IMG/VR virus record: IMGVR_UViG_3300042516_004943
Coordinates: 9,822 to 73,821 of that record
Origin: a virus
Strand: one strand, 5' to 3'
DNA length: 64,000 nt
Shown here piece by piece: positions 1 through 23,953 of this stretch. The translations under genes and the position numbers were made by a program. The notes beneath the pieces were generated by a model. That model did not search any database and had not been told where the DNA came from. It saw nothing but the letters and a program-made list of their open reading frames with translations. Numbering within the stretch: position 1 is the stretch's first letter; every line of letters starts with the position of its first letter.

Positions 1-449
1 AGATGGTAATTCTTCGGCAGTTCGCCATTGAGAAATTGCATCATGCGATTTAGGTTTGGCGTGTAGTCGTAAAACTGAATTGACGGAAAGCGCGCCATGT
101 CGATGAGCATATGCCAAGGAAGGTCAGACAAGACGTTAGGCCGACAAGCAACAGGCATATTATTTTTTGCGCTCCATTTTTCGGCATTGTGCAATTCTTT
201 ATTCATCTGCGCGAGAAACGTGTTGCGCTCGTCGATAAAGTAACGCGACTTGGCAAGGCGAGCATCTTGCACGTTTGAGAAAATGCCCATGCCGGAAGTG
301 TCAAGACAAGCTGCCTCGCAACCGGACGAACGATGCGGACAGAATTGTTTGCCAGACTTACCAGCGGGAGAAAGTGACAAGCCGTAAGTGCGCCAACCGA
401 GCTTTTCGCCCTTTTTGATTTTGGTGTTGTTAGTGGATAGGAGTTTCAT
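1..449 (-). CDS. GP88-family phage protein (Cys-cluster), 3' end outside window
   Basis: Not in ORF track; hand translation from ATG at 449: MKLLSTNNTKIKKGEKLGWRTYGLSLSPAGKSGKQFCPHRSSGCEAACLDTSGMG...RPNVLSDLPW...FPSIQFYDYTPN...PKNYHL. CP-x5-C-x3-C and QFYDYT / PxNYHL motifs are as I recall for GP88-family proteins. Confidence 0.75.
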   Translation of the reverse strand, partial: MKLLSTNNTKIKKGEKLGWRTYGLSLSPAGKSGKQFCPHRSSGCEAACLDTSGMGIFSNVQDARLAKSRYFIDERNTFLAQMNKELHNAEKWSAKNNMPVACRPNVLSDLPWHMLIDMARFPSIQFYDYTPNLNRMMQFLNGELPKNYH

Positions 450-476
450 AGCGTGGTGATTCTATGAGGGTTTGCC

Positions 477-716
477 TTACTTGGCAAGAGCTTTTTTCAC
501 CCTTGCAAGGTCGCGCTTGCTGTGCGTGTAGAGTTTCGCGTCGATGCTTTCCAGATTGGAGAGCAAACGATAGGCTGCGATTTTTTCGCGTGCGTTACGG
601 CGAGCGAAAGTTCCGACGATGCTGTTGCGGTCGCGCAACGTGTTGGAGATGTCTTTTTGAAGTGCAACGCGCGCTTGGATGAGGGCTTCGATGAGTTCGA
701 GTTTGGTGATGTTCAT
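477..716 (-). CDS. small hypothetical protein (helical, basic)
   Basis: 79-aa ORF, ATG start, co-oriented and tightly packed in the minus-strand array. Confidence 0.7.
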   Translation of the reverse strand: MNITKLELIEALIQARVALQKDISNTLRDRNSIVGTFARRNAREKIAAYRLLSNLESIDAKLYTHSKRDLARVKKALAK

Positions 717-754
717 ATTTTTATTTTCTCTGATTTTGAGTCCGGTTGCAAGAA

Positions 755-910
755 TTATTCTGCGAGGAGAGCGTTTATTTTTTCGCGTGTCTTTCTCATC
801 GCATGGAGTAAAACAGTCGTTTGATCGTCCAGCATGGGGTCGATCAAATCGTTTGCGATCTGTTCAAGTTTTTCGGTTAGGGCTTGGAGTTGGATTTCTT
901 TCTCTGTCAT
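755..910 (-). CDS. small hypothetical protein, 51 aa (MTEKEIQLQALTEKLEQIANDLIDPMLDDQ...), probably leaderless
   Basis: Hand-translated; ATG 6 nt downstream of the -10 box of promoter P1. Confidence 0.75.
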   Translation of the reverse strand: MTEKEIQLQALTEKLEQIANDLIDPMLDDQTTVLLHAMRKTREKINALLAE

Positions 911-944
911 GCTTACAAGATACCACAGCCGCGCAAAAATGCAA
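908..944 (-). promoter_or_regulatory. early sigma70-type leaderless promoter P1
   Basis: TTGCAT-N16-TATCTT-N6-ATG with TG extended -10 and upstream A-tracts. Confidence 0.8.
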
Positions 945-993
945 GGGATTTTTTACGATTAAAAAAATATTTTTTTTCTACTTGACAGCGCAC

Positions 994-1013
994 TTGGCAC
1001 ACTTCTTGAACAG
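994..1013 (+). promoter_or_regulatory. sigma54-like -24/-12 motif, copy 1
   Basis: TTGGCACACTTCTTGAACAG (TGGCAC-N5-TTGA versus consensus TGGCAC-N5-TTGC); identical 20-mer at 3792-3811. Confidence 0.45.
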
Positions 1014-1020
1014 TGTTTTC

Positions 1021-1099
1021 CGTAAGTTGTTCATTTTCAGGCACTTACACCCGGCGGCCAGGCGGCCTGCCGTAAGTGGTTGATTATCAACGCTTTACG
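1021..1099. repeat. 79-bp double-palindrome element, copy 1 (IHF-consensus half-sites flanking a GC-rich core)
   Basis: CGTAAGTTGTTCATTTTCAGGCACTTACA-CCCGGCGGCCAGGCGGCCTGC-CGTAAGTGGTTGATTATCAACGCTTTACG (29+21+29). Confidence 0.9.
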
Positions 1100-1230
1100 A
1101 TATAGTCGCTGATTTGGCCGTTTGCTGCGATGCGCTCAAGCCATGTCGAGGTGTTGTAGTGCCACAGGCTCATGGCGAGCAGTGAAACAGGCGTTTGAAT
1201 TCCGAGCAGTTGTTTTATCCAGTTTGTCAT
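1087..1230 (-). CDS. small hypothetical protein, 47 aa (MTNWIKQLLGIQTPVSLLAMSLWHY...)
   Basis: Hand-translated; ATGA overlap with upstream ORF; stop codon lies inside element copy 1. Confidence 0.6.
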   Translation of the reverse strand: MTNWIKQLLGIQTPVSLLAMSLWHYNTSTWLERIAANGQISDYIVKR

Positions 1231-1424
1231 AGTTCTTCAGCGTATTCGTTTTTGTTTTCTGTGCCAAGCATTTTTTCCATGCGCTCTTTCAGTAGCGTAT
1301 AGACAAGGTGCGCGTCATGCACAGCGTCAACACAGTCTTTCCGCATTCCTTCCATGAGAAAGTCTTTTGCGTAGAAGCGGACACCATTTGATTCAAGGGC
1401 TTTTTGTATGTTGGGCGTGATCAT
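1227..1424 (-). CDS. small hypothetical protein
   Basis: 65-aa ORF with ATGA-type overlaps with both neighbours. Confidence 0.7.
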   Translation of the reverse strand: MITPNIQKALESNGVRFYAKDFLMEGMRKDCVDAVHDAHLVYTLLKERMEKMLGTENKNEYAEEL

Positions 1425-1615
1425 GAGTTAGAATCATCGAGGAACATTCCATCAAACACAAGAGGTTTTTCCAGTTCATCAAAAATGTTTTTGCTTTTCT
1501 GATGTGTGCGCTCATGCAACTGCATACAGGCAGAGCAGAGCATGGTTGCAACGAGAACAAACGTGAGAAGTGCCAAGGAATAGGCCACGCTGTCGAATGT
1601 GATGTATTTTTTCAT
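1421..1615 (-). CDS. small membrane protein, 64 aa (MKKYITFDSVAYSLALLTFVLVATMLC...)
   Basis: 3' part of track ORF 1421..1900; ATG at 1615 avoids overlap with upstream ORFs; one hydrophobic segment. Confidence 0.6.
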   Translation of the reverse strand: MKKYITFDSVAYSLALLTFVLVATMLCSACMQLHERTHQKSKNIFDELEKPLVFDGMFLDDSNS

Positions 1616-1619
1616 GAGA

Positions 1620-1706
1620 TTATTTTCGGGAGTCGGCCCAGAGGATGAGGAAGGCGCAAGCAGATGGAAAGATGCCCAGCCAAAAGAGTGGAACCCAGAT
1701 TGACAT
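1620..1706 (-). CDS. 28-aa single-TM microprotein (MSIWVPLFWLGIFPSACAFLILWADSRK)
   Basis: Hand-translated; exactly fills the gap between ORFs 1710..1925 and 1421..1615. Confidence 0.5.
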   Translation of the reverse strand: MSIWVPLFWLGIFPSACAFLILWADSRK

Positions 1707-1709
1707 AGT

Positions 1710-1925
1710 TTATTTATATGATCCAACAGGGATGTTGGGAGTTGAAACGTAAACCGCTTCCAGAAAGCGATCCTCATCGAAACGCGGATTTTGTTCGGCA
1801 AAGTATTTCGCAAAGTCCAAAGCGAGGACTTCAACAGCTTCGTATTCGCCAATCGGCGCGTGTTGTTTTTCAGCGAGACGCTTGCCCAAGATTTTTGCAA
1901 TGGCCTCGAATTGTTTTTTCGTCAT
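1710..1925 (-). CDS. conserved phage hypothetical protein
   Basis: MTKKQFEAIA...FAEQNPRFDEDRFLEA pattern, which I recall from small phage early proteins. Confidence 0.75.
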   Translation of the reverse strand: MTKKQFEAIAKILGKRLAEKQHAPIGEYEAVEVLALDFAKYFAEQNPRFDEDRFLEAVYVSTPNIPVGSYK

Positions 1926-1956
1926 GGTGTTATTGTGGTTTGTTTTGTGGTTAGGG

Positions 1957-2157
1957 TCAAGAGATTTTTTTCGGCTCCCGATAGCAGAGTCCGTGGCGGT
2001 TGTAACGTCCTTCGGCGCGGTTCATCCGTTCGATGTCGCGCTCGTAAGCTTCGGGGTTGCGCTGATAGGCAGGATCCCAAGGATCAATGCCGAGTGGGAG
2101 GTCGAGGGTTTGCAGACGCTCTTCGTCGCGCCAGCTTGTGGTGTATCCGTTTTTCAT
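1957..2157 (-). CDS. small hypothetical protein, probably leaderless
   Basis: 66-aa ORF; ATG 6 nt after the -10 of promoter P2. Confidence 0.75.
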   Translation of the reverse strand: MKNGYTTSWRDEERLQTLDLPLGIDPWDPAYQRNPEAYERDIERMNRAEGRYNRHGLCYREPKKIS

Positions 2158-2191
2158 ACTTTTAATCTATCAGAAAAATCCGTTTTGTCAA
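2155..2191 (-). promoter_or_regulatory. early leaderless promoter P2
   Basis: TTGACA-N16-TAGATT-N6-ATG; the TGA in the -35 box is the stop codon of the upstream ORF. Confidence 0.8.
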
Positions 2192-2367
2192 GCGACTTTT
2201 TTCACGCTGACTTCCCAGTAGGGAAAGAACAGATGCATATAGCGAGCAGTCACTTGCACGCCATCCTTACGCCAGATGGTGCGCTTATTGCTCTGCGCAA
2301 CGTAGTGACCGAAGTCTTTCATGGCGTTGAGGACGATTTCCTTTTTGTGGGTTCCTTTTGTTATCAT
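2188..2367 (-). CDS. small basic hypothetical protein, 59 aa (MITKGTHKKEIV...), probably leaderless
   Basis: Start reassigned to ATG 2367, 6 nt after the -10 of P3. Confidence 0.7.
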   Translation of the reverse strand: MITKGTHKKEIVLNAMKDFGHYVAQSNKRTIWRKDGVQVTARYMHLFFPYWEVSVKKVA

Positions 2368-2401
2368 GCTTACACTATACCACAGAACGCGCAAAAAGCA
2401 A
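2365..2401 (-). promoter_or_regulatory. early leaderless promoter P3
   Basis: TTGCTT-N16-TATAGT-N6-ATG, extended -10, A-tracts upstream. Confidence 0.8.
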
Positions 2402-2453
2402 GGATTTTTTTTGCGATTGTGCAATTTTTTTTATTATTTTTTTGCTTGACATT

Positions 2454-2532
2454 TGTAAACTGTTGAATATCAGGCACTTACGCCTGGGGGCCAGGCCCGG
2501 TTCTGTAAGTGCTTGATTTGCAACGCTTTACG
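2454..2532. repeat. 79-bp double-palindrome element, copy 2
   Basis: TGTAAACTGTTGAATATCAGGCACTTACG-CCTGGGGGCCAGGCCCGGTTC-TGTAAGTGCTTGATTTGCAACGCTTTACG (29+21+29). Confidence 0.9.
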
Positions 2533-2683
2533 TATCTTGCCAACCACGAAAAAACTTTGCTTTGCGCGCGAATTTTTTCTTGACACGCATGGCAAACGAG
2601 GGCTTGCAAGTTGTCTTGCGAACGCTGCGCTCGATTGCGCGAGCAAGCGGTCGCGTGTCGATTGTCATAATGATTCTGCTCAT
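2528..2683 (-). CDS. small highly basic protein, 51 aa (MSRIIMTIDTRPLARAIERSVRKTTCKPSFAMRVKKKFARKAKFFRGWQDT)
   Basis: Hand-translated; abuts upstream ORF; TAA lies inside element copy 2. Confidence 0.6.
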   Translation of the reverse strand: MSRIIMTIDTRPLARAIERSVRKTTCKPSFAMRVKKKFARKAKFFRGWQDT

Positions 2684-2684
2684 G

Positions 2685-2915
2685 TTAGTTGACCCCAAAA
2701 GAGAATTGCTGATTTTTTACTGCGTTCAACTCTACCGCGAGCGTAGTCGAAACGCCACACAAGAGATTGAGTTTGTGCTCGTGCATGGTGATCGTGCGCA
2801 AAGCCTTCTCCAACATATCTTGAAGATGGTGGATGTGCGCCTCCTGCGCTTGGATTGTTTTCTCATGCTTGATGAGAGTTTCCAGCGATTTGATGATGCC
2901 GTCTTGTTGTGTCAT
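2685..2915 (-). CDS. small coiled-coil protein, 76 aa (MTQQDGIIKSLETLIKHEK...)
   Basis: Start reassigned to ATG 2915; heptad-like pattern. Confidence 0.65.
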   Translation of the reverse strand: MTQQDGIIKSLETLIKHEKTIQAQEAHIHHLQDMLEKALRTITMHEHKLNLLCGVSTTLAVELNAVKNQQFSFGVN

Positions 2916-2919
2916 AGTA

Positions 2920-3090
2920 TTAGTGTTTGGGTTTGGGTTTGGGTTCAGGACGAGCGCACGGATCGTTGCGGTGACGCTCCTCGGCATAGCCGAAAAGAAT
3001 GTCAAATGCTTGTTCCGGCGTGATCCAATCGTCCTCTGGGAGGTCGAAGCGCCATTCAGTAGGCCATGCGCCTGTGGTGTTTTCTGTCAT
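2920..3090 (-). CDS. small hypothetical protein, 56 aa (MTENTTGAWPTEWRFDLPEDDWITPEQAF...)
   Basis: Start reassigned to ATG 3090; tiles between neighbours. Confidence 0.6.
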   Translation of the reverse strand: MTENTTGAWPTEWRFDLPEDDWITPEQAFDILFGYAEERHRNDPCARPEPKPKPKH

Positions 3091-3094
3091 AAAA

Positions 3095-3304
3095 TTAATT
3101 GTCCCAACCTTCCTGTTCGCCCCAGTCCGCGAGATCGTCCATGCCCGACCCGTCACCGGGCCATTGACCCTCATACCCATCATAGGGTTGCGGCTCCTGC
3201 TCGACGGCAGGCTCGGCAGCAAACGTGCCGCGCATAGCCTCATGTTCAGAGGCCATCTCGTCGGATTGCGGTTGTGTGTTGAAGTCGTCAGTGATGTTGT
3301 TCAT
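3095..3304 (-). CDS. very acidic small protein, 69 aa (MNNITDDFNTQ...WPGDGSGMDDLADWGEQEGWDN)
   Basis: Start reassigned to ATG 3304; D/E-rich with a single Arg and no Lys. Confidence 0.7.
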   Translation of the reverse strand: MNNITDDFNTQPQSDEMASEHEAMRGTFAAEPAVEQEPQPYDGYEGQWPGDGSGMDDLADWGEQEGWDN

Positions 3305-3347
3305 GGTGTTAGGATATGGTGAGTTGAGGATTATTGCAAGCGTTTTT

Positions 3348-3698
3348 TTATGCGGCCAAAGCGGGACGCACACGGAACACAAGCTCCAGCTTGCCAGCAT
3401 CGGGGCGAGTCTCGCCAGCGAGGAAAGCGGCGAGCATCTTGCTGTCGAAGTTGAAGCGAGAGAGGGGGTGAGAGTTAGCCCAACGCAAGCCATCGGGCAA
3501 GCCAAGGTCGATGAGTTGCTCGACCTCTGCATCAGAGGGGCAGGAGTAAGGCGACCAGCCAAGGGTTGCGATAGTCTTGCCAGTCTCGACGCTGACGAGT
3601 TCGTGCCAGAGTTTCGTGCAGTCGCCATCGAAGTCCTCCGAGATGATGAGCGTGCAGAGGGTTCCGTTGACGTTGAATGTGGTGTCTTTATCTTTCAT
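3348..3698 (-). CDS. hypothetical protein, 116 aa (MKDKDTTFNVNG...), probably leaderless
   Basis: Start reassigned to ATG 3698, 6 nt after the -10 of P4. Confidence 0.75.
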   Translation of the reverse strand: MKDKDTTFNVNGTLCTLIISEDFDGDCTKLWHELVSVETGKTIATLGWSPYSCPSDAEVEQLIDLGLPDGLRWANSHPLSRFNFDSKMLAAFLAGETRPDAGKLELVFRVRPALAA

Positions 3699-3732
3699 GC
3701 TTATAGCATAACACAGCGCACCGAAAAAGCAA
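3696..3732 (-). promoter_or_regulatory. early leaderless promoter P4
   Basis: TTGCTT-N16-TATGCT-N6-ATG. Confidence 0.8.
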
Positions 3733-3791
3733 GAGATTTTTTTGCAATTGTGAAAGTTTTTTTTATATCTTTTTTCGCTTGACAGGCTGAG

Positions 3792-3811
3792 TTGGCACAC
3801 TTCTTGAACAG
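3792..3811 (+). promoter_or_regulatory. sigma54-like -24/-12 motif, copy 2
   Basis: TTGGCACACTTCTTGAACAG, identical to 994-1013. Confidence 0.45.
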
Positions 3812-3818
3812 CTGTTTG

Positions 3819-3897
3819 CATAAGTCGTTGAATATGAGGCACTTACGCCCGGCGGCCAGGCGGCCCGCCGTAAGTGCTTGATTTAGAACAACTTACA
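3819..3897. repeat. 79-bp double-palindrome element, copy 3
   Basis: CATAAGTCGTTGAATATGAGGCACTTACG-CCCGGCGGCCAGGCGGCCCGC-CGTAAGTGCTTGATTTAGAACAACTTACA (29+21+29). Confidence 0.9.
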
Positions 3898-3994
3898 GAG
3901 AACAGATCGTGCGCCAAACGATCACCACAGCAAGGCCCACAAGTGCGCCCTCTATGACACAGATGATTGCCTTTGTCATAGCGTGCTTTGTCAT
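3893..3994 (-). CDS. 33-aa single-TM microprotein (MTKHAMTKAIICVIEGALVGLAVVIVWRTICSL)
   Basis: 3' part of track ORF 3893..4111; TAA lies inside element copy 3. Confidence 0.5.
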   Translation of the reverse strand: MTKHAMTKAIICVIEGALVGLAVVIVWRTICSL

Positions 3995-3998
3995 AGTA

Positions 3999-4229
3999 TT
4001 AGCAAGGCGCGCCGCCATAGCACGGCGCATCTTCGTTTGCGAGGATAGAGCAGACTTTGTCATAGAAGTCTTTATCTGCTTCGAAGTCATCTTGCGAGAT
4101 GTCTTCACCATCTTCGTCAGTCAAGACAAAGCCAGAGAGTTGCAGTTGGTCAGCATGATCGAACGCATACTCTGTGCAGAGGTAGTATTCTTTTCCGTTG
4201 TGTGTGATGTAGTCTTCGTATGTATTCAT
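3999..4229 (-). CDS. small acidic protein
   Basis: 76-aa ORF, strongly D/E- and aromatic-rich. Confidence 0.75.
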   Translation of the reverse strand: MNTYEDYITHNGKEYYLCTEYAFDHADQLQLSGFVLTDEDGEDISQDDFEADKDFYDKVCSILANEDAPCYGGAPC

Positions 4230-4237
4230 GTTATGTC

Positions 4238-4513
4238 TTACAGGCTGAGTAGTGTATCGTGTTCGTGACCGCAGTCAATGATGAGTTTTTCCATAGCGCG
4301 AAGTTGCTCATCCGTCAGAACATTTTGTTCAGAGTCTTCTGCCTTGGTGATCGAGACATCGTCCACAACGTAGCCTTCATATTGGCTATCGTAAGAGGTG
4401 TCGATTCTGATGTCTTTGGGGTCGATGAAGTAGTCTTCTCCATCGATGCGGATTTCAAGGGTGTCACCATAGGCAGGTGTTCCGTAGCTCATAGCGTGAT
4501 TGATTTTTTTCAT
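4238..4513 (-). CDS. small acidic protein, probably leaderless
   Basis: 91-aa ORF; ATG 6 nt after the -10 of P5. Confidence 0.8.
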   Translation of the reverse strand: MKKINHAMSYGTPAYGDTLEIRIDGEDYFIDPKDIRIDTSYDSQYEGYVVDDVSITKAEDSEQNVLTDEQLRAMEKLIIDCGHEHDTLLSL

Positions 4514-4547
4514 ATATTTAAGATAGCAGAGGTGTGGGAAAAGTCAA
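4511..4547 (-). promoter_or_regulatory. early leaderless promoter P5
   Basis: TTGACT-N16-TATCTT-N6-ATG; -35 box contains the upstream TGA stop. Confidence 0.8.
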
Positions 4548-4729
4548 GCGATTTTTTCGATCTTTATGATCTCGCCGTCAGCAGGAAGATTCACCTTCAA
4601 GGCTTTTTCAACCTCATGGGAAACCCAAGTGATGCCATAGGCGGCAACCTCCAACGTAACGGGCAGAGGGTATGAGCCGATTTCGGTGGAGACTGATGCG
4701 GTGACTTTGTAGGTGTTTTTCTTTTTCAT
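4544..4729 (-). CDS. small hypothetical protein, probably leaderless
   Basis: 61-aa ORF; ATG 6 nt after the -10 of P6. Confidence 0.75.
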   Translation of the reverse strand: MKKKNTYKVTASVSTEIGSYPLPVTLEVAAYGITWVSHEVEKALKVNLPADGEIIKIEKIA

Positions 4730-4763
4730 GCTTTTAGAGTATCAGAGATGTGGTGAAAGTCAA
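4727..4763 (-). promoter_or_regulatory. early leaderless promoter P6
   Basis: TTGACT-N16-TACTCT-N6-ATG. Confidence 0.8.
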
Positions 4764-4766
4764 GGG

Positions 4767-4949
4767 TTATTTGTGGATTTTTTTCATCCATACGCAAGGC
4801 TCGACCCTATGGAACGAAACCTTGCAAGACCGACCAACGCGGTTGGTGAAGGTGAACGAGCGGATAGCCAGCGAAGCAAAGGTGCAAGTGGCCTTGTTGA
4901 GGGTAGCGAACTCCACGATCTCGCTGCTGGTGTAGTATTTTCTTTTCAT
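4767..4949 (-). CDS. small basic hypothetical protein, probably leaderless
   Basis: 60-aa ORF; ATG 6 nt after the -10 of P7. Confidence 0.7.
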   Translation of the reverse strand: MKRKYYTSSEIVEFATLNKATCTFASLAIRSFTFTNRVGRSCKVSFHRVEPCVWMKKIHK

Positions 4950-4983
4950 GCTTACACTCTACCACAGCCGCGCAAAAAAGCAA
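4947..4983 (-). promoter_or_regulatory. early leaderless promoter P7
   Basis: TTGCTT-N16-TAGAGT-N6-ATG; near-identical to P1 and P3. Confidence 0.8.
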
Positions 4984-5022
4984 GGGATTTTTTTATCTTT
5001 TTTGAAACTTTTTTTCTTGACA

Positions 5023-7890: not shown

Positions 7891-10800
7891 TTAAAACATT
7901 TCTAATCCAGAAGCATAATAAGTTCCAGATTCATTTATATTTGGATAAATATAGGCCCCAATTCTGCCAAAACCAGAAGCTGTATAGTTTCCAGTATCTA
8001 TTCCAGTGATATGGTCTAAAATATCCGTTTCATAAATCACGCTATCAATATTTCCACTTATTGTTCCGCTTTCAAGCGACCCAGTAACGCCAACAAAGTA
8101 TTCATAATAGGCAATGTTTATAATGTTACCGCTTGTTATTCCAGATGTTCCTTCGCCTAAGACAAGTGGATTTTCAGAAGATGCGAAAAATATATTATCA
8201 ATTGATGCATTTAGGCCAGTATACATAATGTCTACGCCCGATAATCCACCAAAAAATCCACTTAATTCTAATGGTATTATTCCTGTAATATATAATCCAG
8301 TATCTATATTTCCAGAAACTGTTTGTCCTGTCATGAAATCTCCGCTGATACCAGTCAAAGAAAATGGTCGCGTACTAGCAACATATTCAAATCCTGTAAT
8401 ATTTCCAGAAAGCATACCGGTTATAAATTCTTGACTTTCGAATATGCCAGATACATTTGCAAGCACAACTCCGCTCGTGTATAGTACTCCAGTGCCAATT
8501 CCCGTTCCTGTACCTAAAGAAAAATTACCTATTGGATATACAATATCTGTGATTGGAAATTGCCCAAGGCCTGTAGTTATAAGTCCGCTTAAAAATCCTA
8601 TACCAGTATTTTGATTTGATATTCCAGAAAAACCAGTACCGCTATAGAAATTAAATGTAATTCCAACTGCCCTTCTATACACATCAGAAAAACCAAAGCC
8701 AGAAACTCCAGCATATTCGCCTGATTGTATTAATAAGCCGCGCAAGCCAAGCGTGCCAGTTAATATTCCAGAACCACTATTGACTTCTATGTGACCTATA
8801 AATCCAGTCATCATTCCATTTCCAAAAACATTTGAAACTGTTCCAGAAAATCCAGACCCTTCCGTAAAAGAATATCCAGAATATACTAAATTTGGATATT
8901 TAAAATTTGAATTTTGAGAATAGAAACTAGAATGGCTTACCGAATTTTGAGAAAAGAAATACTGTTTATTATCTATAAAATACCCACTTGATCCGGACGT
9001 ACCATCGCCTGTAGAGGCATAATTTATAAACCTTAATGATTGATCTAAAACTCCACTAATAAAGCCTATCATTCTTTCTCTCGGAAGAGTATTTTCTGAA
9101 ACAAAGCCGCTATTTGAAAAGTTAAATCCATAAACTGTATTTGTAAATCCTGGATCAAAACCAGATTCTCCATTAAATCCATTAAAATTTAATGCTATTG
9201 GTTTTTTGACAGTTCCTATAATTCCAGTTAAAATTCCACTACCAGTAGTTAACTGCTCTAGCGTAAAAGGATTAAACTGTATTCCAGAGAATCCAGTAAA
9301 TTGACTATTAATCGTATAGCCCGAATATAAATTTCCATATCCATAATTTAATTGCTCAAATCCGCCAATTCCAGTAAATTGTCCAGAATATTTTAAAATA
9401 TTTTTATATCCAATATGTCCAGTCATTATTCCTGGTCCAAGAAACGGATCATTAAACCCGATAAAACCGCTTTGCTCTATGAAAAATCCCGAAAATTCAT
9501 AACCAAGATCTGGGTCAACAAAGCCTGGGGTTTTTTCAAAATTAATTGAGGCATTTACGCCAGTATCAAAATATATATCCTGCTCATAATTTTCATAGTA
9601 ATATCCGCTATATTCACCAGTTATTACCGCGTCCTGATCTTTGCCTGAAAAAGTTCCGTCTCCGAGCATTGTGCCAAATAAAAATCCAGTAATAAGAACT
9701 GGCTCTAGTATCGAATCTGGTAAAAATTTATACGACACATTATCTTTTATAAATCCGCTATTTTGAAAAATTCCCGTTGCCTGTAGAAAAAACCCATCTT
9801 CTTCTAAAATGCCGCTTATGTATCCGGTAATATATTCGTATACAAATCCAGTATATGGAAAATCTACTCTTGTATTATCTATAAAGTATCCGCTTTGTGC
9901 TAAAGCACCAGCAGATCTAACAAAATTAAAATTATTATCTATTGATCCGTTAATATACCCAATAACTTGCTCTGCGCCAGTTGTTCTGTAAGGGGGAAAT
10001 TGTATTACATTTCTTTCTAGCAATGTTAGCCTTTGACCACTATAAGATCTACTGTATGGCCCAAATATTCCTATCCCACTATTTATCCCAGAGTATCCTG
10101 TGTATATGCCACTGTAAAATCCGCTAAAACTTGATACAAGGTTTGGGGCAAATGGTTCAAAGGTTCCATTCGGATACATTATTCCACTAATTTTACCATA
10201 CAGGCCTTGATTGTATATATTTTCTATATCCAACAATCTGTAATTAACTACTCCTGTTATATAATCTGCGCCAGTAATTTGGCTTTGATTGCCGAATTCT
10301 AAATATTCCGTTGGCGAAAATGCATTCCACATATTGCCTTCTTGAACTATTGACCAGCTTCCAATATCTCTTAAAAAGAAACCAACAATATTTGCGCTCA
10401 TTATATTAGATAATGATTCTGCGGCTTGAGCCGTTTTATTCTCTGAAGCGATATATGCCAAACTATTTATATTTCCACTTACTGTTGAAAATGAAATATC
10501 TGATACGTTTACTGCTATAGGTAATGGCGGCAAAATTATAGCTAAAGATTCTGCCATATTAATAGATATGTCATCAGCTATTCTTCTATAATCTCCTCTT
10601 AAAACCAGAAATCCGCCGCAGTAATGATCAAGCGCTGCAGTATCATAAGTTTGTCTTCCCAAATTGCTCATTCCGGCCCCGATCACCATTCTTTTCGGCA
10701 TCCAGTATTCTGGCTCTTGCACTGTTCCAGAGCGTGTAGTTATTCTGTAAGGCTGTGGGAATGTTCCGGTATATATGCCAGGATCTTTTCCAAAGAAAGA

Positions 10801-11512: not shown

Positions 11513-13306
11513 TTATTTATAAAACCCACCAAGCGCTATATTCACATCTGATATTCCAGATAAGGTTTTTAAAATATCAATTCCTATTCTATCACCAGCA
11601 GTTACTTCAAAAGAAATTTTTGAATTTGCATCTGTTTCTGCATACATCATTCCAGAGCTTATACCAAAATCTATTAAATATTCTTTAACCCCATTTTTAT
11701 TCTTCTTATAAAATTTTCCAGTTAATGGAGAAAAATCTGGAAGATTTCTATAGCCTATCAGCCCAGTCATTATTCCAAGTCCGGAATTTGAAAATTGAAC
11801 TCCACTAAATCCACTTTTTGCTGGAAAAAATCCACTATATTCATATCCGTACTGTTTAATAAATCCGTTTTCAGATTCGAAGGCCTCAAATTGGTAAGTT
11901 CCGTTGCCACCCGTTACAAATCTTCTTTGCTCATATGGATATAAAAAGTATCCACTAAATCCATCAGTATTGGGTGGATATCCCGCACCAGTATGAATTG
12001 GTCTGAAATTTGGCAATACCTCAACTTCTAAAAATCCACTGATTATTTCCCCCCTTAGTTCTTCTCTTACCCCTATTGGCCCATATAAATATCCAGTAAA
12101 TCCTCCAGACACATCTTGGTATAATCCAGTAAATTGGTTTTGATTTGTATTGCTAAATATTCCAGAATATATATAATTTACGTTCTGAAATCCTGGCATG
12201 CCACTAAAGCCAGAAAATAAACCGCTTCCAGTAGGAAAATAGTATTGCTGCCCACTTAAAAAATATCCACTTGAATCGATTATGAATCCGTTTCTTCCTG
12301 TTGGAAACCCACTTATTCTAAATCGAAATGATGATAGTGGATAAAAAATATTTGTTGAGCTTCTATATCCACTTAAAAAGCCAGTAATTACATTATCAAG
12401 CTTATATACATTTCTACTACCTATTGCTTGCGTATATACTGCTGGGCCAAAATTATCAGTATTAGCGGATCCTGTTAGCGCATTTATATTAAACCCAGTA
12501 AATGAATACCCTAAATTTTGATCAAAACCAGGCTCTCCATTAAAACCACTAAAGTTAGTATTTGAAAAATATTTAGCATTGTTATTTATAATATATCCAC
12601 TACCGCCATTAAATAAAAATGACCGTTGTCTTTCTAAAAATCCGCTAATATATCCGGTAATATAATTTGTAAATGTAGTTGGTCCAGCCCCAGAATTACC
12701 ACAATATAATCCCCATCCAGTAAATTCAGCTGGATATTGAATATATTGTTCATATAAATTTTCTTTTATTTGCACATTATTACCATAATAATTAAAAGCT
12801 ACTGGTATTTTATCGAATGATGCGGCGGCAGAATAATAACCTAACAAGCTTATTGACAATGATCGCATTTCATTTGCTGATGAATGAATATTTAGGCCTA
12901 ATATATTATGTGGTGTTATTTTGTAATCTAAAGGTCCATTATTAGAGTATTGATATTTTCCTAAAGTAAATGCTCCAACATATTTAGTATCAATAACACT
13001 TTCTGGCTTTCTTGTATAAAAAGATCCTTCTAACTTATCATCTCCTGTTGCTGGGTGTGAGCATGTGACCAAAAATCCAGTGGCCATAAAAAAATCACTC
13101 ATATATATTTCATTTAAATAATTTCCAACAACTGGCCATCTGCTATAAAATGATATTGGAGCATATCCTCTTAAAAAAAATCTATCCGTTAATTGTATCC
13201 CAGATGTATTTTTAACTTGCATGCCATCAATAAATAAACGATTGTCATGGGCAGTTAAAATGGACCCATTTAAATTGATAGATTCTATGGATAGTACGCT
13301 TGGCAT
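11513..13306 (-). CDS. virion-type protein, paralog family 2 (related to 29225..31123), with 3 tandem inserted modules
   Basis: Two beta-sandwich-like repeats (..TGW..; PLTGKFY..IGIDI..V.I.LGG) match the 29225 ORF; the second repeat is interrupted by SG modules. Confidence 0.75.
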   Translation of the reverse strand: MPSVLSIESINLNGSILTAHDNRLFIDGMQVKNTSGIQLTDRFFLRGYAPISFYSRWPVVGNYLNEIYMSDFFMATGFLVTCSHPATGDDKLEGSFYTRKPESVIDTKYVGAFTLGKYQYSNNGPLDYKITPHNILGLNIHSSANEMRSLSISLLGYYSAAASFDKIPVAFNYYGNNVQIKENLYEQYIQYPAEFTGWGLYCGNSGAGPTTFTNYITGYISGFLERQRSFLFNGGSGYIINNNAKYFSNTNFSGFNGEPGFDQNLGYSFTGFNINALTGSANTDNFGPAVYTQAIGSRNVYKLDNVITGFLSGYRSSTNIFYPLSSFRFRISGFPTGRNGFIIDSSGYFLSGQQYYFPTGSGLFSGFSGMPGFQNVNYIYSGIFSNTNQNQFTGLYQDVSGGFTGYLYGPIGVREELRGEIISGFLEVEVLPNFRPIHTGAGYPPNTDGFSGYFLYPYEQRRFVTGGNGTYQFEAFESENGFIKQYGYEYSGFFPAKSGFSGVQFSNSGLGIMTGLIGYRNLPDFSPLTGKFYKKNKNGVKEYLIDFGISSGMMYAETDANSKISFEVTAGDRIGIDILKTLSGISDVNIALGGFYK

Positions 13307-13314
13307 ATTTTTTA

Positions 13315-14148
13315 TTACATTACCGATCTGAACATTGCTTTCTGAAAATTATCTACTGCTATATTATAATTATAAATATCATTTTCAGAAAATGCATAAC
13401 CAACAGAAGCGAGCGCTATGTTCGCATCCAACGTTGATGTTACTTTGCTTAAGTAATTATTGCCAAAAAGTAACAATTTTAAATTATTTTTTAAATCTAT
13501 ATCTGTAGGTAATAACGGAAACCAATTTCCAAAAACTTGCCCATTCAAGTAGCACTTGGTAGTGTTGATGCCAATCATAAGTCCCGTTCCGCTAATATTA
13601 GAATTGATCATTTGATCGGCGGTATATCCAAATCCGCCTAAAGTATTAATTATATTATAAACATATCCAACAATGCCATCATTTTTACTAAAATTTAACT
13701 CGAAGGCCCCAACGCCAGAAAGTTCTTGAATAAAATTTCTAGTATTTACTCCAATAAATCTTCCATCTTTTGTTATGTTTGAAAATGGCGTTCTATTGTA
13801 TACTGATATATGAACGTTTTTAAATGATGCAAATAATGTTAATGGTATATCAGTATTTCCATAACCCGTTACTCCGGTTACGCCATTTTTATTGTGGGTT
13901 TGCTGTCCAAACCAAGAGATTTTATACTTATTAGGATCTATAAGATTAAAGCTGTGCGAAGATGCGGTTCCTCCAATAAAAGGATAAAGGGCTATAAATT
14001 TATCTATTAAATTTAATTGCCACAATGCATCAGCAAATTCGGCAAGTGCGCCAACTTCATGATTTCTAAACACTTTAAAGCCACCGCAAGCATTAATGAA
14101 TGGCATTACGGTTGTGTTAAAAGAATCGTTTACTCGCCTTTTATACAT
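13315..14148 (-). CDS. virion-type protein, paralog family 3 (helical head plus LamG/ConA-like domain)
   Basis: ALW..NLIDKFIALYPFIGGTASSHSFNLIDP..GYGNT..HISVY motif shared with 18522..19727. Confidence 0.7.
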   Translation of the reverse strand: MYKRRVNDSFNTTVMPFINACGGFKVFRNHEVGALAEFADALWQLNLIDKFIALYPFIGGTASSHSFNLIDPNKYKISWFGQQTHNKNGVTGVTGYGNTDIPLTLFASFKNVHISVYNRTPFSNITKDGRFIGVNTRNFIQELSGVGAFELNFSKNDGIVGYVYNIINTLGGFGYTADQMINSNISGTGLMIGINTTKCYLNGQVFGNWFPLLPTDIDLKNNLKLLLFGNNYLSKVTSTLDANIALASVGYAFSENDIYNYNIAVDNFQKAMFRSVM

Positions 14149-17100
14149 ATGTTTCTCTATTCATGGCCAGAGTAATATTTAGAGATATTAATTGATCTTC
14201 AAATTTTGTCTGATAGTTATCAAATCTGTAATACCAACCAACATATGGAATATTTATACCCTCAAGATAGTACGCAAAATAATCTTCAAAAACAAAAGGT
14301 TTTGTTGGGTGCCAAAGGCGATTTGCGTTCCATTTTTCCATAGGGGCAAAAAAGAAGCCACCGATGCCCGTATCATTATTTGGAAATTCTGCTTTGAATT
14401 GAAACCAATAATTAATTTCTTTTGGATATGAATTAGATGGGTAGTCTGTTGTTAGGCCTCCATATTCATACGTTGGCCAAGATGGAAATGGAGTATTTGC
14501 AAGATTAATACGGTATCTTTTTCCATAATAATCAGTATTATTAGGATATTTGCCTTGAATACCGATCTCTGTAACTTCATCTCCGCCAGGTATTACAAAC
14601 ATAAATCTAGTATCGTTTTCAGGCGGAAATGGTGGCGGGTAGTTTGGATAGAATCCCAATCCACTTTCAGGCTCGTTTCCGATCATAACTGCTGATAGAT
14701 AGATATTTGGGTTTATTTGATTTCCAAAAAACCATTTATTGTGCGCTGGCCACCAAAACCCGTACATTGGGCCTGCTTGCGAGCCAACAGCTGAAGCTAT
14801 TCCGTTAGGAGTAATGGTTCCGAATATTCTACTATAATTTCCAATAAGTTTGATTGAGCCGCTTCCGTTAAAATCGCCATAAACTACATTTTCTCCGGTT
14901 ACAGGTATTGGAGTTATCATTGCCGGAATTCTTATAGCTGTATCATATCTTACTTTTACAAATTCTCCAGTTGTTAGTTCTATACCCGACAATTGCTTTC
15001 TAAAACCAAAGATGCCCGTCATAATTCCACTATTAGACCTAATAAAATAATCATTTCTTGAACCTATGAATCCGGTAAGTGATCCTGTAATGCTATTTGT
15101 TGGATATGTATAGAAAACTCTATGACCTATAAATCCAGAAAGAATACCTGTGCCAAAAGCTCCGGTTAGTCCAGAAAATGTAGAGCCTTCTGGGAAATTG
15201 AAACCAGTATAAGCGAACCCGGTATCGATACTAAAACCGGGCATTCCATTAAAGCCAGAAAATGTATTTCCGGTTGGAAAATAATATTGTTGGTTATTTA
15301 AGAAATATCCGCTAGATCTTAGTTGTGGAAGTTCTGGATATAAATCTTGAAAGGTAAAAAATTGACCAAGATCGTTTCTAAATCCGCTTATAAAGCCATT
15401 AATTTTTTCATAGTTTATTTTTGGCCAACTCTCCCCAGAAAATCCACTCTGTGATGGGAAAAAGCCCGAGAAAGAAAAGCCTAATCCAGTATAAAAGCCT
15501 GGCATTCCGCTAAAACCAGAAAATGTATTTCCGGTTGGAAAATAATATTTTTTACCACTTAATATATATCCACTAAACCCTTGACTTCCAGGTATAGGAA
15601 CAGTAAATGGAATGAATGTGCCAAATGCATTTGTTACACCGCTTCTGAAGCCAACAATGCGCTCTCTTTCAAGTACAGTATTGTATATAAAACCGCTACC
15701 ATATTGTAGATTGAACATTCTACCGCTCGGATTATATCTCCAGCCATATTCGAAAGATGGTATGTTATCGAATCCCTGCTCTTCAGTACCAAAAGATCTA
15801 AGAACGTTTCTGTTTCCAATAATACCGCTGGCGTAACCAGGGCCAGTATTTCCGTTAATTGTTTTTACTGTATAGCTAGGAAAATTTAAACCGCTAAATT
15901 GAAAACCTAAATAGCTATCAAATTCTGGCAGCCCTGAAAATCCGCTTAATGGTATATTTTCATATAAATTTCTATATCCTAATATTCCAGTCAAAATTCC
16001 AGTTCCAGAACTTGTATTATCAACACCGCTAAATCCGCTCCCAGTTATATATGGAAAACCGCTATATGCAAATCCAAGATAAGCATCAAATTCATTTGGG
16101 TTTTCTCCAGCAAATCCAATAAATTCACCGCTTTTATAAAAAAAGTTTCTGCTGCCAATAAATCCAGTATAAATTCCAGTTCCAGAATTAGTAAATTCTA
16201 TACCACTAAATCCGCTTGAAAATTGGAAAAAACCTGAGTATATAAATCCAGTTTCATTACTAAATCCTAATTGGCCAGAAAATCCAGAAAAAGATTGTCC
16301 GGTAGGAAATGCTCTTTGGGATCCTTCAAAAAAATATCCGCTAGATAACTTATCAATTTCACTAAATCCGCTAAAAATGGTACCGGATTGAAAACCACTT
16401 ATATAACCTATAATTCTTTCCGTCCTTATTTCTTGTATTGGTGGAAATTGATATCTTTGATTATTTAAATAGTATCCACTAGAACTATAAAGCAAATTCG
16501 ATTCAAATCCAGAAAAATTACCAGTAGTATCACGAAATCCGCTAATATAGCCAGTTATTGGTTGAGAAATTACTTTGCGATTTGCGAATGGAATTTGTTG
16601 TCCGTTAATAACGTATCCACTTAAATATGCATGTTTAAATTGAGGATCATTTTGATTATAAAATGTAAAATTATTAAATTGGTCTAAATTTCCACTCCTG
16701 TAACCATATACAATTTGATATTCTTTTGTTTTAACAGGGGGTATATTATATAACTGACCAGAAACTATTATTCCGCTACCTATATCTATTGGGTGATTGT
16801 GCAAGTTAAAATTGCCACTATTATCAATATATCCGCTTAAAAATCCGGTAGCAAGCTCTTCAGATGTAAATAAAAATCTAGACCATATACCTCGCCTACC
16901 GGCATTGTTAGATAAATCTGATGCATTTGGTTTGAAACCAGCTTCTGTATAGGTGACTCTTTCCGATTCAATAGGAAAATCATATGTTCTAGAAAAAATA
17001 GCCATTCCTGATCCAGATATGTAAGTTCCTGTGGCTCTATTAAAATTTGGCCTAATATAGTTTGTTTGTTTATAAAATCTATGCAAAGCTGTATCTTTAT

Positions 17101-17366: not shown

Positions 17367-18479
17367 TTAAATTCTAGCCATAGATTGCCTTAAATTAATT
17401 ACAATTTTTTTATCAGATCTTTTTATTTGCGGGTTATTTAATTTCCACAACCATCCATCAACTGTATTTTGTCTATTTGTTTTTACAGTTGTAAATAAAA
17501 AACCTCCTATAGTTTCATTTGCTGTTGGATTATTTATATCAAATACATATTCAATATCTCTGTAAAAACTTCCTTGAGTATAATTAGATGGGTTTATTGT
17601 TCCGTTGGCTACAGAAAGTCTGCTACCAAGCCAGTTAGTAAATAGGGTATTATTAATATTATTTTCATTCTCAAAAAAATTTGTTAAAAGATAAGCTGTG
17701 CCAAAGCATTTATTTGTGCATGTTTCTATTTCTGCACAAAACTCTTCACAAAATGGCATAAAAGAAGATCTTGGCGAATCGCCATTTCTGATAACTGGAT
17801 TTCCATCTAAATCAAAGCTTCCGAATATATCATCAAATCTTCCAACTAATTTTAACCATCCATTAGCATTGAATGTTCCAGAAGATAAATTTATATTTAT
17901 TGGATTGACAATAGCACTACACGAAATAGAAAAATTATAAAACAATCTTAACCACTGCCCTCTTGGTATAAGAATCGGGCTGTCTAAAAGAAATTTTGTA
18001 AATAATTCTCCGTTCCATCCGTTTTTAAGCCCTATTTCAGAAGCTGTATAAGACTTTGGAAACATTGGTAAGTTTTCTGGCTTTGGAAAATCATATACTT
18101 TTTTAAAAACTCTTTTTCCTAAACTATAAAAATCTTCAATTGAGCATGATTTATCGTTTATAACGTTTGTTTCTAATGTTTGATATGTTAAATTAGTATC
18201 GCTGGCTTGCGCTGGAGCTATTCCGGAGCCTAGCACAGCGTTTCCTTTCAAAAAAGATGGTATAGTATTCCAATTTAAATTTAAATGGGGGCCATAGCCA
18301 TTATTTGCAGATAGAATATCAAGGGCCTGATCTAGTATAAGGTTTTTTTTATATGAACTTCCAAATGGAAAAGTTTCTTTATTATTCTCATCAACTATAG
18401 CTACGTTCCAGGATCCACCAATTTCAAATGATGGGTTTATAGATACGCCTAAATGATTTTTTATATGCAAATTTAACAT
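17367..18479 (-). CDS. putative virion protein, paralog family 1
   Basis: GSWNVAIV..FPFG..KKNLILD..LGSG..ASDTNL..KVYDFP..LFTKF..WLRLFY..LKLVGRFDDIFG. Confidence 0.7.
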   Translation of the reverse strand: MLNLHIKNHLGVSINPSFEIGGSWNVAIVDENNKETFPFGSSYKKNLILDQALDILSANNGYGPHLNLNWNTIPSFLKGNAVLGSGIAPAQASDTNLTYQTLETNVINDKSCSIEDFYSLGKRVFKKVYDFPKPENLPMFPKSYTASEIGLKNGWNGELFTKFLLDSPILIPRGQWLRLFYNFSISCSAIVNPININLSSGTFNANGWLKLVGRFDDIFGSFDLDGNPVIRNGDSPRSSFMPFCEEFCAEIETCTNKCFGTAYLLTNFFENENNINNTLFTNWLGSRLSVANGTINPSNYTQGSFYRDIEYVFDINNPTANETIGGFLFTTVKTNRQNTVDGWLWKLNNPQIKRSDKKIVINLRQSMARI

Positions 18480-23032: not shown

Positions 23033-23953
23033 ATGGAAATTAAATGCGAATTTTGTGCTAAAAAATTTAGTGGCGTTATTGATCTATCAAAACATATCAA
23101 AGAGCACAAAATGTCTCAAAAAAAATATTTTGAACAATTTTATCCAAGACATGATTTGTCTAATAAAAAAAAGATAGATTTTAAATCAGTAGAGCAGTAT
23201 TTTTTATCTGACTTTGTAGATAAAACTTCTATGAAATCTTGGCTGGCAAATATAGGCAAAGAAAAAGCCATAGAGTATTTGTCTGGAAAAATAAAAAAAT
23301 ATTGTGAAGTTAAAAATTTAAAAAATGCCCCACCTGAATTTTTTATTCAAACCGTTAGCTGCTTGCCATCAATAAGGTTTATAGAAAAATTATGTGGAAA
23401 TGATTATAATAATATATCTATAAAAAGCGGAAAAGAATCAAAATATGATTATTCTAATTTAGATATTAGAGCAACCAATTCAAAGCCAGCTAAGCAGATA
23501 GTTATAGATACCAGAGAAAAAAGACCACTGAAATTTGCTAAAGATTTAAGGAAAGTAAATGTTGCTCTTGATTATGGAGATTATGCTCTTTCACCAGCAT
23601 CTAGAATTGTAATTGAAAGAAAAAGTTTCAGTGATTTTTTTGGCACTTTTGGCGCAAATTTAGAGAGATTTGAAAAAGAATTATTAAGGGCTCAAAATAA
23701 TAATGGATACATTATCATAATGGTAGAAGCGTCTTATAGTTCATTAGCATATAACAAGAAGCGCTGGTTCGCAACAAGCCCAGAATATATATTTCATAGA
23801 GTCAGAGATTTATACAAAAAATATGAATGTTTTCAAATTGTTTTTTGCGATGGAAGAAAACATATGACTGACTTAATTTTAAAAATTTTAGGACTTGGCG
23901 AAGAAGTTAAAAAAATAGATTTGCAATATTGCATTGAAAAAGAAATAATATAA
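23033..23953 (+). CDS. ERCC4/XPF-family endonuclease with N-terminal C2H2 zinc finger
   Basis: CEFC-x12-H-x3-H; IVIDTRE, GDY and IERKSFSDF catalytic motifs. Confidence 0.85.
   Translation: MEIKCEFCAKKFSGVIDLSKHIKEHKMSQKKYFEQFYPRHDLSNKKKIDFKSVEQYFLSDFVDKTSMKSWLANIGKEKAIEYLSGKIKKYCEVKNLKNAPPEFFIQTVSCLPSIRFIEKLCGNDYNNISIKSGKESKYDYSNLDIRATNSKPAKQIVIDTREKRPLKFAKDLRKVNVALDYGDYALSPASRIVIERKSFSDFFGTFGANLERFEKELLRAQNNNGYIIIMVEASYSSLAYNKKRWFATSPEYIFHRVRDLYKKYECFQIVFCDGRKHMTDLILKILGLGEEVKKIDLQYCIEKEII

Follow-up and report, generated by a model that had tools for sequence, protein, structure and literature searches.

A probable array of five self-nested copies of one small domain in a fibre-type protein of a long-tailed phage

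The present analysis concerns the central region of P0001, a protein of 1203 amino acids (aa) encoded within a stretch of 64,000 nucleotides (nt) of viral DNA (IMG/VR virus record IMGVR_UViG_3300042516_004943, positions 9,822 to 73,821). This stretch, in the following referred to as the window, represents 64 kb out of a record of 73.8 kb which is estimated to be about half complete. P0001 is probably a fibre-type virion protein whose central 545 residues consist of five copies of one and the same domain nested into one another. We call it a fibre protein because of its gene context and because its neighbours share the repeated domain. The source is assigned to a long-tailed phage since the genes of the window include, besides those for terminase large subunit, portal and capsid protein, that of a 2585-aa tape-measure protein. 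P0001 can be subdivided into an N-terminal domain (aa 1-430), which is common to one homologue of 98% identity and to eight orthologues of about 40% identity, the nest (aa 434-978) and a C-terminal part (aa 985-1203).

The repeated unit, which we term module, comprises about 100 residues, is rich in glycine and aromatic residues and is specific to this lineage. It is composed of three parts: part A leads from an I.GFISG motif via SGYF to FPTG, part B follows the pattern FSGFSG..GF..GY.YSGF..SGFSG, and part C is the last strand, G.GI.TG.IG.RN. Motifs of the type SGF, SGY and TGF recur densely throughout, and the consensus of 79 contiguous copies contains no conserved tryptophan and only one conserved arginine, near the C-terminus. 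A hidden Markov model (HMM) of 100 positions (alignment A1) was built from seven contiguous copies only, four of which had been picked by eye and aligned while three more were taken from a 597-aa protein encoded next to P0001. Modules 4 and 5 of P0001 are among these seven rows and their own scores are, hence, not independent. Sub-profiles for A, B and C served to call pieces automatically, the minimum score of 5 bits having been derived from shuffled sequences of matched composition; in 180,000 residues of shuffled sequence, the maxima reached by the three sub-profiles amounted to 10.5, 10.4 and 6.1 bits, respectively. Few proteins carry the module: out of 1.84 billion cluster representatives, a profile search picked up only 19, and a word-based search returned 20 homologues of the nest. 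No relative of the module was found in Pfam or, with a best E-value of 0.48, among PDB sequences.

Within P0001, complete copies of the module occur at aa 602-702 and aa 808-907 only and are not adjacent to each other, so the region is no ordinary tandem array. The whole-module profile places its positions ~3-47 twice upstream of the first complete copy (aa 511-551 and 555-593). Between the two complete copies it places positions 53-97 (aa 708-764) and 50-78 (aa 772-800), and downstream of the second one positions 85-98 (aa 908-921) and 60-95 (aa 942-975). The resulting order, A1 A2 A3 [A4B4C4] B3C3 B2 [A5B5C5] C2 B1C1, corresponds to the topology 1(2(3(4))(5)) and extends over aa 434-978, i.e. 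window positions 8569-10203. Exactly this order, including its balance and topology, had been read from the sequence in the original prediction, which put it at 8570-10210; the whole-module profile, built from contiguous copies, and the sub-profiles reproduce it. Through the A, B and C sub-profiles, each of the 15 pieces can be aligned to the intact copies, three of them weakly, and most of them score 20 to 55 bits compared to the shuffled maximum of 10.5 bits. Ten of the 15 are called automatically at 5 bits. B1, B3 and C1 are supported by their alignment to the same pieces conserved in the orthologues of about 40% identity, in which they are often called; B3, for instance, is missed by the B sub-profile and aligns to B3 of the orthologues. 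A1 matches its orthologous counterpart from the I.GF.SG motif to FPPY. C2 runs directly into B1 in P0001 as it does in the orthologues, and pieces equivalent to B1C1 are called in P0013, P0021 and P0033. The outermost brackets, which rest partly on the orthologues, are the weakest part of the parse.

In addition to its canonical portion, A1 contains about 30 SG[YI]-rich residues (aa ~461-495, window 10018-10122) which are absent in all orthologues. A faint, non-significant B-like match in this region (aa 451-474, 0.4 bits) could be the remnant of an unbalanced piece. Downstream of the nest, the C-terminal part (window 7891-8550) harbours a different short repeat with four SGNI-containing units as well as an A-like match of 6.1 bits (aa 1025-1061), which the parser scores as an unmatched A.

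The same analysis was applied to a pooled set comprising the homologues from profile and word-based search and the genes of 13 fetched loci, altogether 46 non-redundant proteins with 671 pieces. The stack parser obeys a simple rule according to which A opens a module, B requires an open A and C closes it. Only 83 of the 671 pieces remain unmatched, mostly for want of an outermost partner, compared to about 488 after shuffling of the piece order. Perfect balance without manual help is reached by 15 proteins; in nine of them the copies are not simply arranged in tandem, one of these nine possessing nine modules with a depth of four. For five modules, balanced words make up 273 of 756,756 arrangements. 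Partial copies start or stop at two profile positions only, namely at 45-49 (88 partial copies) and at 80-84 (54 partial copies). Because of this restriction we consider the two insertion sites, which had likewise been predicted, as real and fixed. As one profile matches both the flanking partial copies and the complete ones, host and guest are members of one domain family. P0028 (824 aa) is the sole member whose piece order is no better than shuffled (seven of 13 pieces unmatched, P 0.24). Its branch in the family tree is long, and the protein has either diverged strongly or is genuinely unbalanced.

These data bear on the question of whether the pattern might have arisen by chance in a low-complexity sequence of glycine, serine and aromatic residues, the A, B and C labels as well as their balance being over-read. 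SGF, SGY and TGF motifs are abundant in the module, and three pieces of P0001 stay below the threshold. Yet, shuffled sequences do not exceed 10.5 bits while most pieces reach 20 to 55 bits, the balance found in 46 proteins by far exceeds what shuffling yields, the break points are well defined, and the pieces are conserved in orthologues of about 40% identity. Shuffle scores, balance test and break sites effectively refute a chance origin, which we consider hardly credible.

Nesting is not confined to P0001. In P0002 (1074 aa), which is encoded in the same window, the pieces read A1 A2 A3 [ABC] BC BC B1 [AB[ABC]C] C1, given as 1(2(3(4)))(5(6)) inside module 1. Here, the guest at the B/C site resides in module 1 and is nested itself, whereas that of P0001 resides in module 2, so that the branching differs as had been noticed beforehand. 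The N-terminal domains of both proteins do not match each other in BLASTP, in agreement with the earlier assignment of the two hosts to different families. A direct repeat of 82 nt with 83% identity (window 15233-15314 and 15494-15575) covers the end of A and the start of B in modules 5 and 6 of P0002. Since the remainder of these two modules is much more diverged, this patch looks like the product of gene conversion between host and guest.

BLASTP searches with the flanking domains define three host families (those of P0001, P0002 and the 597-aa protein), each carrying the array at one position, with gene order conserved across the loci. Inside each of the three families the tree shape of the nest varies. 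In the third block of the 597-aa family it forms a graded series, ABC, AB[ABC]C, AB[A[ABC]BC]C and AB[A[AB[ABC]C]BC]C. In a tree of the N-terminal domains of this family, forms with tandem copies only occupy two separate clades and are interleaved with deeply nested ones, the sister of the 597-aa protein of the window being a 911-aa form nested four deep. Most telling are the pairwise comparisons. P0014 (1040 aa) and P0018 (918 aa) are 91.7% identical. Besides a gap of 18 aa elsewhere, they differ by one gap of 100 aa which corresponds to one complete module and occupies precisely the junction where A of the host ends (YFFP) and its B begins. The same 100-aa gap at the A/B junction separates P0020 from P0014, the P0018/P0020 pairs showing 88-92% identity. 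Further pairs differ by 309 aa (three modules) at the B/C boundary of the third module (597-aa protein and P0024), by 195 aa (two modules) in a single gap (P0012 and P0006) and by 308 aa in total (three modules) at 85% identity (P0019 and P0009). According to these alignments, length differences between orthologues are quantised in whole modules, and no unbalanced intermediate was seen among close orthologue pairs. Together with the three host families and the differing orthologue trees, this argues for nesting as a recurrent process rather than a single duplication, as originally proposed.

The bracket pairing is upheld because dropping the bracketed content yields a contiguous canonical module in a natural relative, and we regard this regeneration of contiguous host modules as the strongest support for it. 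In P0001 itself, about 99 extra residues in module 2, as counted against seven aligned orthologues, are found only in this protein and its 98% identical twin among 13 sequences, and are absent in all 11 other distinct orthologues. As the tree is unrooted, the module differences would fit gain and precise loss alike, and the two cannot be told apart. At the DNA level, the one readable junction of a one-module insertion or deletion (indel), that of locus L012, displays neither a flanking duplication nor clear microhomology, both of which had been suggested as possible traces of insertion. An 8-nt CCAGATA recurs near this junction but fails to predict the sequence of the shorter orthologue. Likewise, no donor of module 5 was identified; its A piece is nearest to the host's A2 while the best match of the whole module reaches only 52% identity. 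P0016, P0017 and P0021 contain one more contiguous module (aa ~964-1056), which follows the closed nest at a distance of about 100 aa. The C-terminal parts of the P0001 family are highly variable, and P0013 has a precomputed match to the PKD domain (PF00801).

Structure prediction, which had been recommended for the nest, succeeded for one nested pair. The AlphaFold2 model of A3[A4B4C4]B3C3 (aa 553-766) is all-beta with a mean predicted local distance difference test score (pLDDT) of 77.5 and a predicted template modelling score of 0.57, the pLDDT of A3 ranging from 75 to 86. It was calculated from a 46-row alignment composed of nine A[ABC]BC segments from window and loci and 36 contiguous modules placed on the inner copy. 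Each module of the model begins with a long strand, continues with several short ones and ends with a long strand. In a fold search against 48,161 chains, domain-sized targets align either to residues ~45-153, i.e. to the inner module, or across residues 1..214. The latter alignments would require the outer halves to lie together, and these ranges suggest packing of A3 against B3C3. No match of this search is significant (best Z 3.2), and Foldseek returned none from PDB or BFVD at E ≤ 0.001. DysF domains occupy the first three places of the fold search (Z 3.0-3.2, root-mean-square deviation 5-6 Å), which is within noise. Chains of the HABAS or sandwich-barrel hybrid motif (SBHM) type are not present among the 43 rows with Z ≥ 2, although absence from this list does not exclude the fold.

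From these observations we propose the following mechanism. The long first and last strands of a module probably pair with each other and thereby bring the chain ends together, and a copy with adjoining ends could be accommodated in a loop of another copy and leave the latter intact. Such a guest would be accepted at two loops, A/B after FPTG and B/C before the last strand. In P0001, module 1 would hold module 2, module 2 would accommodate module 3 at A/B and module 5 at B/C, and module 3 would hold module 4. The A pieces would form the outward path of the chain and the BC pieces its way back, each split module presumably refolding as one domain. The predicted shape is that of a four-domain rod which carries a side domain on its second unit and projects from the host protein. 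The array probably evolves in such a way that whole modules are gained in frame or precisely lost at the two loops. This has occurred repeatedly in three fibre-gene families, and patches of gene conversion between modules would blur the genealogy. Illegitimate or out-of-register recombination could be favoured by the recurrent SG[FY] codon motifs, only balanced products being retained by selection. A more far-reaching version of this proposal assumes a true recursion rule by which one whole domain is inserted or excised at either loop of any copy, making the tree shape a fast-evolving, heritable property that tunes host binding. The sharp sites and the clean 100-aa indels could then mean dedicated or strongly biased recombination and not only selection on random rearrangements. 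We put this version forward tentatively and hold it to be unlikely.

A number of results weigh against the nested-domain reading. Three of the 15 pieces of P0001 are below threshold, B1 with 3.1 bits as well as B3 and C1, which are seen by the whole-module profile alone (6.6 and 4.2 bits). The borders of module 5 are ambiguous: in a deletion scan with the orthologue profile the best single deletion covers aa 785-874 by a small margin, and B5/C5 is a slightly better match to the orthologue sequence than B2. P0001 has no PHROG match and no fibre annotation of its own. Pair statistics trained on 104 contiguous modules (cross-validated win rate ~0.84 for true versus swapped A/BC) prefer the bracket partner to other partners within one protein in 0.70-0.75 of the comparisons for A/BC and in 0.61-0.67 for AB/C splits. 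This coupling test, with samples that are not independent of one another, lends modest to weak support. In a covariation analysis, one module subtype accounts for most of the top pairs, which were hence not taken as contacts. The similarity matrices of A and of BC for the 14 modules of the window do not correlate (r = -0.04, below the permutation mean). Neither does the profile score follow nesting height (rho = -0.03, no gradient). A tree ordering the insertions, as envisaged at the outset, was thus not recovered; one reason why this order is unrecoverable is the gene-conversion-like patch linking modules 5 and 6 of P0002. The AlphaFold2 model of the whole nest (aa 425-990, nine-row alignment) is unusable, its mean pLDDT being 34. 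In the smaller model, the packing of the outer halves is read from alignment ranges alone, and a monomer model may mislead as fibres are usually trimers.

The main rival of the nested-domain reading is a hairpin fibre with two arms, in which an array of A pieces runs up and an array of BC pieces runs down, both being zipped into one continuous beta structure like the needle of the T4 gp37 tip. Discrete domains would not exist; the arms would duplicate separately and selection would keep them equally long. In the distal tip of gp37 the chain goes out and returns, so that its early segments run alongside the late ones in reversed order. The main stack of P0001 plainly reads AAAA followed by BC BC BC BC. 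In addition, strands of the model cross the module boundaries at residues 45-60 and 137-153, and the uncorrelated genealogies of A and BC speak for the hairpin as well. Two plain arrays, however, do not explain complete copies between B and C of another copy, i.e. side insertions at a second site, and the unit also exists in free-standing form as tandem copies in the 597-aa protein. Furthermore, close orthologues differ by contiguous modules of about 100 aa at one point instead of paired A and BC indels, with no unbalanced intermediate among the close pairs. Finally, the region of aa 421-1020, which includes the nest, lacks the HxH repeats that serve as iron-binding motifs, and the fold search returned no match to the needle. 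On balance, a hairpin of this kind appears distinctly unlikely. The pieces may also complement each other between the chains of an intertwined trimer, the bracket order reflecting a register constraint of a three-fold beta structure. Intertwined trimers are common among phage fibres, and the failed monomer prediction of the whole nest would suit such an assembly. One nested pair, in contrast, gives a monomer model with the mean pLDDT stated above, branching at the B/C site is hard to fit on a single three-fold axis, and whole-module indels suit self-contained units. We consider the trimer reading improbable.

Nesting of a domain within its own kind is known as such. In the Si3 insertion of the beta' subunit (RpoC2) of cyanobacterial RNA polymerase, HABAS/SBHM domains are inserted recursively, nine extra HABAS domains and a nest of six levels being reported (PMC11515920, PMC13114784). 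As in the phage nest, one small beta domain is both host and guest over several levels with bifurcating nodes. Si3 appears to consist, however, of a different domain, as the fold search listed no such match and there is no sequence relation to the phage module, and it belongs to a conserved enzyme rather than a phage virion protein. It is described as a fixed architecture throughout its lineage, whereas the phage tree varies between close relatives, down to a one-module indel at 92% identity. In the ferlins dysferlin and myoferlin, one DysF copy is inserted in another, with long antiparallel terminal strands, a long loop and short capping strands (PMC3898210). Self-nesting is common to both, and the layout of secondary structure in our model is similar. 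In contrast, P0001 and P0002 have no match to Pfam DysFN or DysFC, and the module consensus is devoid of Arg/Trp stacks. Moreover, DysF nests by one fixed level while the phage module reaches a depth of four to five with branching and turnover. We take the resemblance at Z 3 as a lead on the layout of the modelled fold and not as homology. Tandem-repeat arrays of fibres and adhesins are resembled insofar as the module occurs head-to-tail in the 597-aa protein and its relatives, with a copy number that varies between phages. Only two of the five copies in P0001 are contiguous, however, and unequal crossing-over of tandem copies alone cannot yield A A A ABC BC BC BC or B ABC C.

New are the domain family, its occurrence in a virion protein, the branched trees that result from the use of two sites, and the turnover seen when near-identical phages are compared; our literature searches found no description of these for phage fibres. 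For repeat proteins, tandem duplication is regarded as the predominant mode of growth. The module family described here would multiply by self-insertion, with two fixed entry points, four to five levels, branches and natural one-module intermediates. It may, hence, serve as a natural system for studying insertion tolerance, the folding of a discontinuous domain round its guest and the origin of such architectures at the DNA level. Between near-identical phages, host binding could differ in reach or valency as a virion appendage varies in length and branching. For protein design, a small beta domain with meeting ends and two permissive loops would be a candidate scaffold for single-chain branched assemblies.

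The coordinates of the nests and their genes are compiled in Table 1. The genes belong to a run of large minus-strand genes which, according to the list of open reading frames (ORFs), adjoins the head and tail genes.

Table 1. Nests, nest pieces and surrounding genes in the window.
Feature	Window position	Strand	Residues	Basis
P0001 gene	7891-11502	minus	1203 aa	ORF list and translation
A1, opening piece of outermost module	9985..10203	minus	aa 434-506	A sub-profile 6.4 bits at aa 438-463
A2, opening piece of module 2	9847..9978	minus	aa 509-552	A sub-profile 27.7 bits; profile positions 3-47
A3, opening piece of module 3	9715..9846	minus	aa 553-596	A sub-profile 20.1 bits
Module 4, contiguous A4B4C4, innermost, at A/B site	9397..9708	minus	aa 599-702	Profile positions 3-100, 113 bits
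B3C3, closing module 3	9205..9396	minus	aa 703-766	Profile positions 53-97, 6.6 bits; C sub-profile 10.4 bits
B2, middle piece of module 2	9088..9204	minus	aa 767-805	B sub-profile 6.6 bits
Module 5, contiguous A5B5C5 between B2 and C2	8782..9087	minus	aa 806-907	Profile positions 2-100, 111 bits
C2, closing strand of module 2	8737..8781	minus	aa 908-922	C sub-profile 10.5 bits
B1C1, closing outermost module (weakest calls)	8569..8736	minus	aa 923-978	B sub-profile 3.1 bits; profile positions 60-95, 4.2 bits
597-aa protein gene	11513-13306	minus	597 aa	ORF list
Three contiguous tandem module copies in 597-aa protein	11741..12673	minus		Three whole-module profile matches; parse ABCABCABC
277-aa protein gene	13315-14148	minus	277 aa	ORF list
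P0002 gene	14141-17365	minus	1074 aa	ORF list
Six-module nest in P0002	14996..16864	minus		Profile matches A, A, A, ABC, BC, BC, AB, ABC, C, C
370-aa protein gene	17367-18479	minus	370 aa	ORF list

Tail-fibre PHROG phrog_4176 is matched by P0002 (E 7e-5) and by its 370-aa neighbour (E 1e-7), whereas neither P0001 nor P0002 matches a Pfam family at E ≤ 0.1. The phage is very distant from cultured ones: its terminase shares 23% identity or less with that of any GenBank phage, and tblastn of P0001 against GenBank phages gave no match. Rfam and tRNA scans over the window found nothing. The tape-measure gene of 2585 aa implies a very long tail; its product (window 42186-49943) contains the minor-tail (tape-measure) domain PF10145 (E 1e-29). 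The position directly upstream of the terminase large subunit is taken by a 306-aa protein (23033-23953) in which a weak zinc-finger match accompanies an ERCC4 nuclease domain (E 5e-10). Window positions 1-5000 have a G+C content of 40-50% compared to about 33% over the remaining window.

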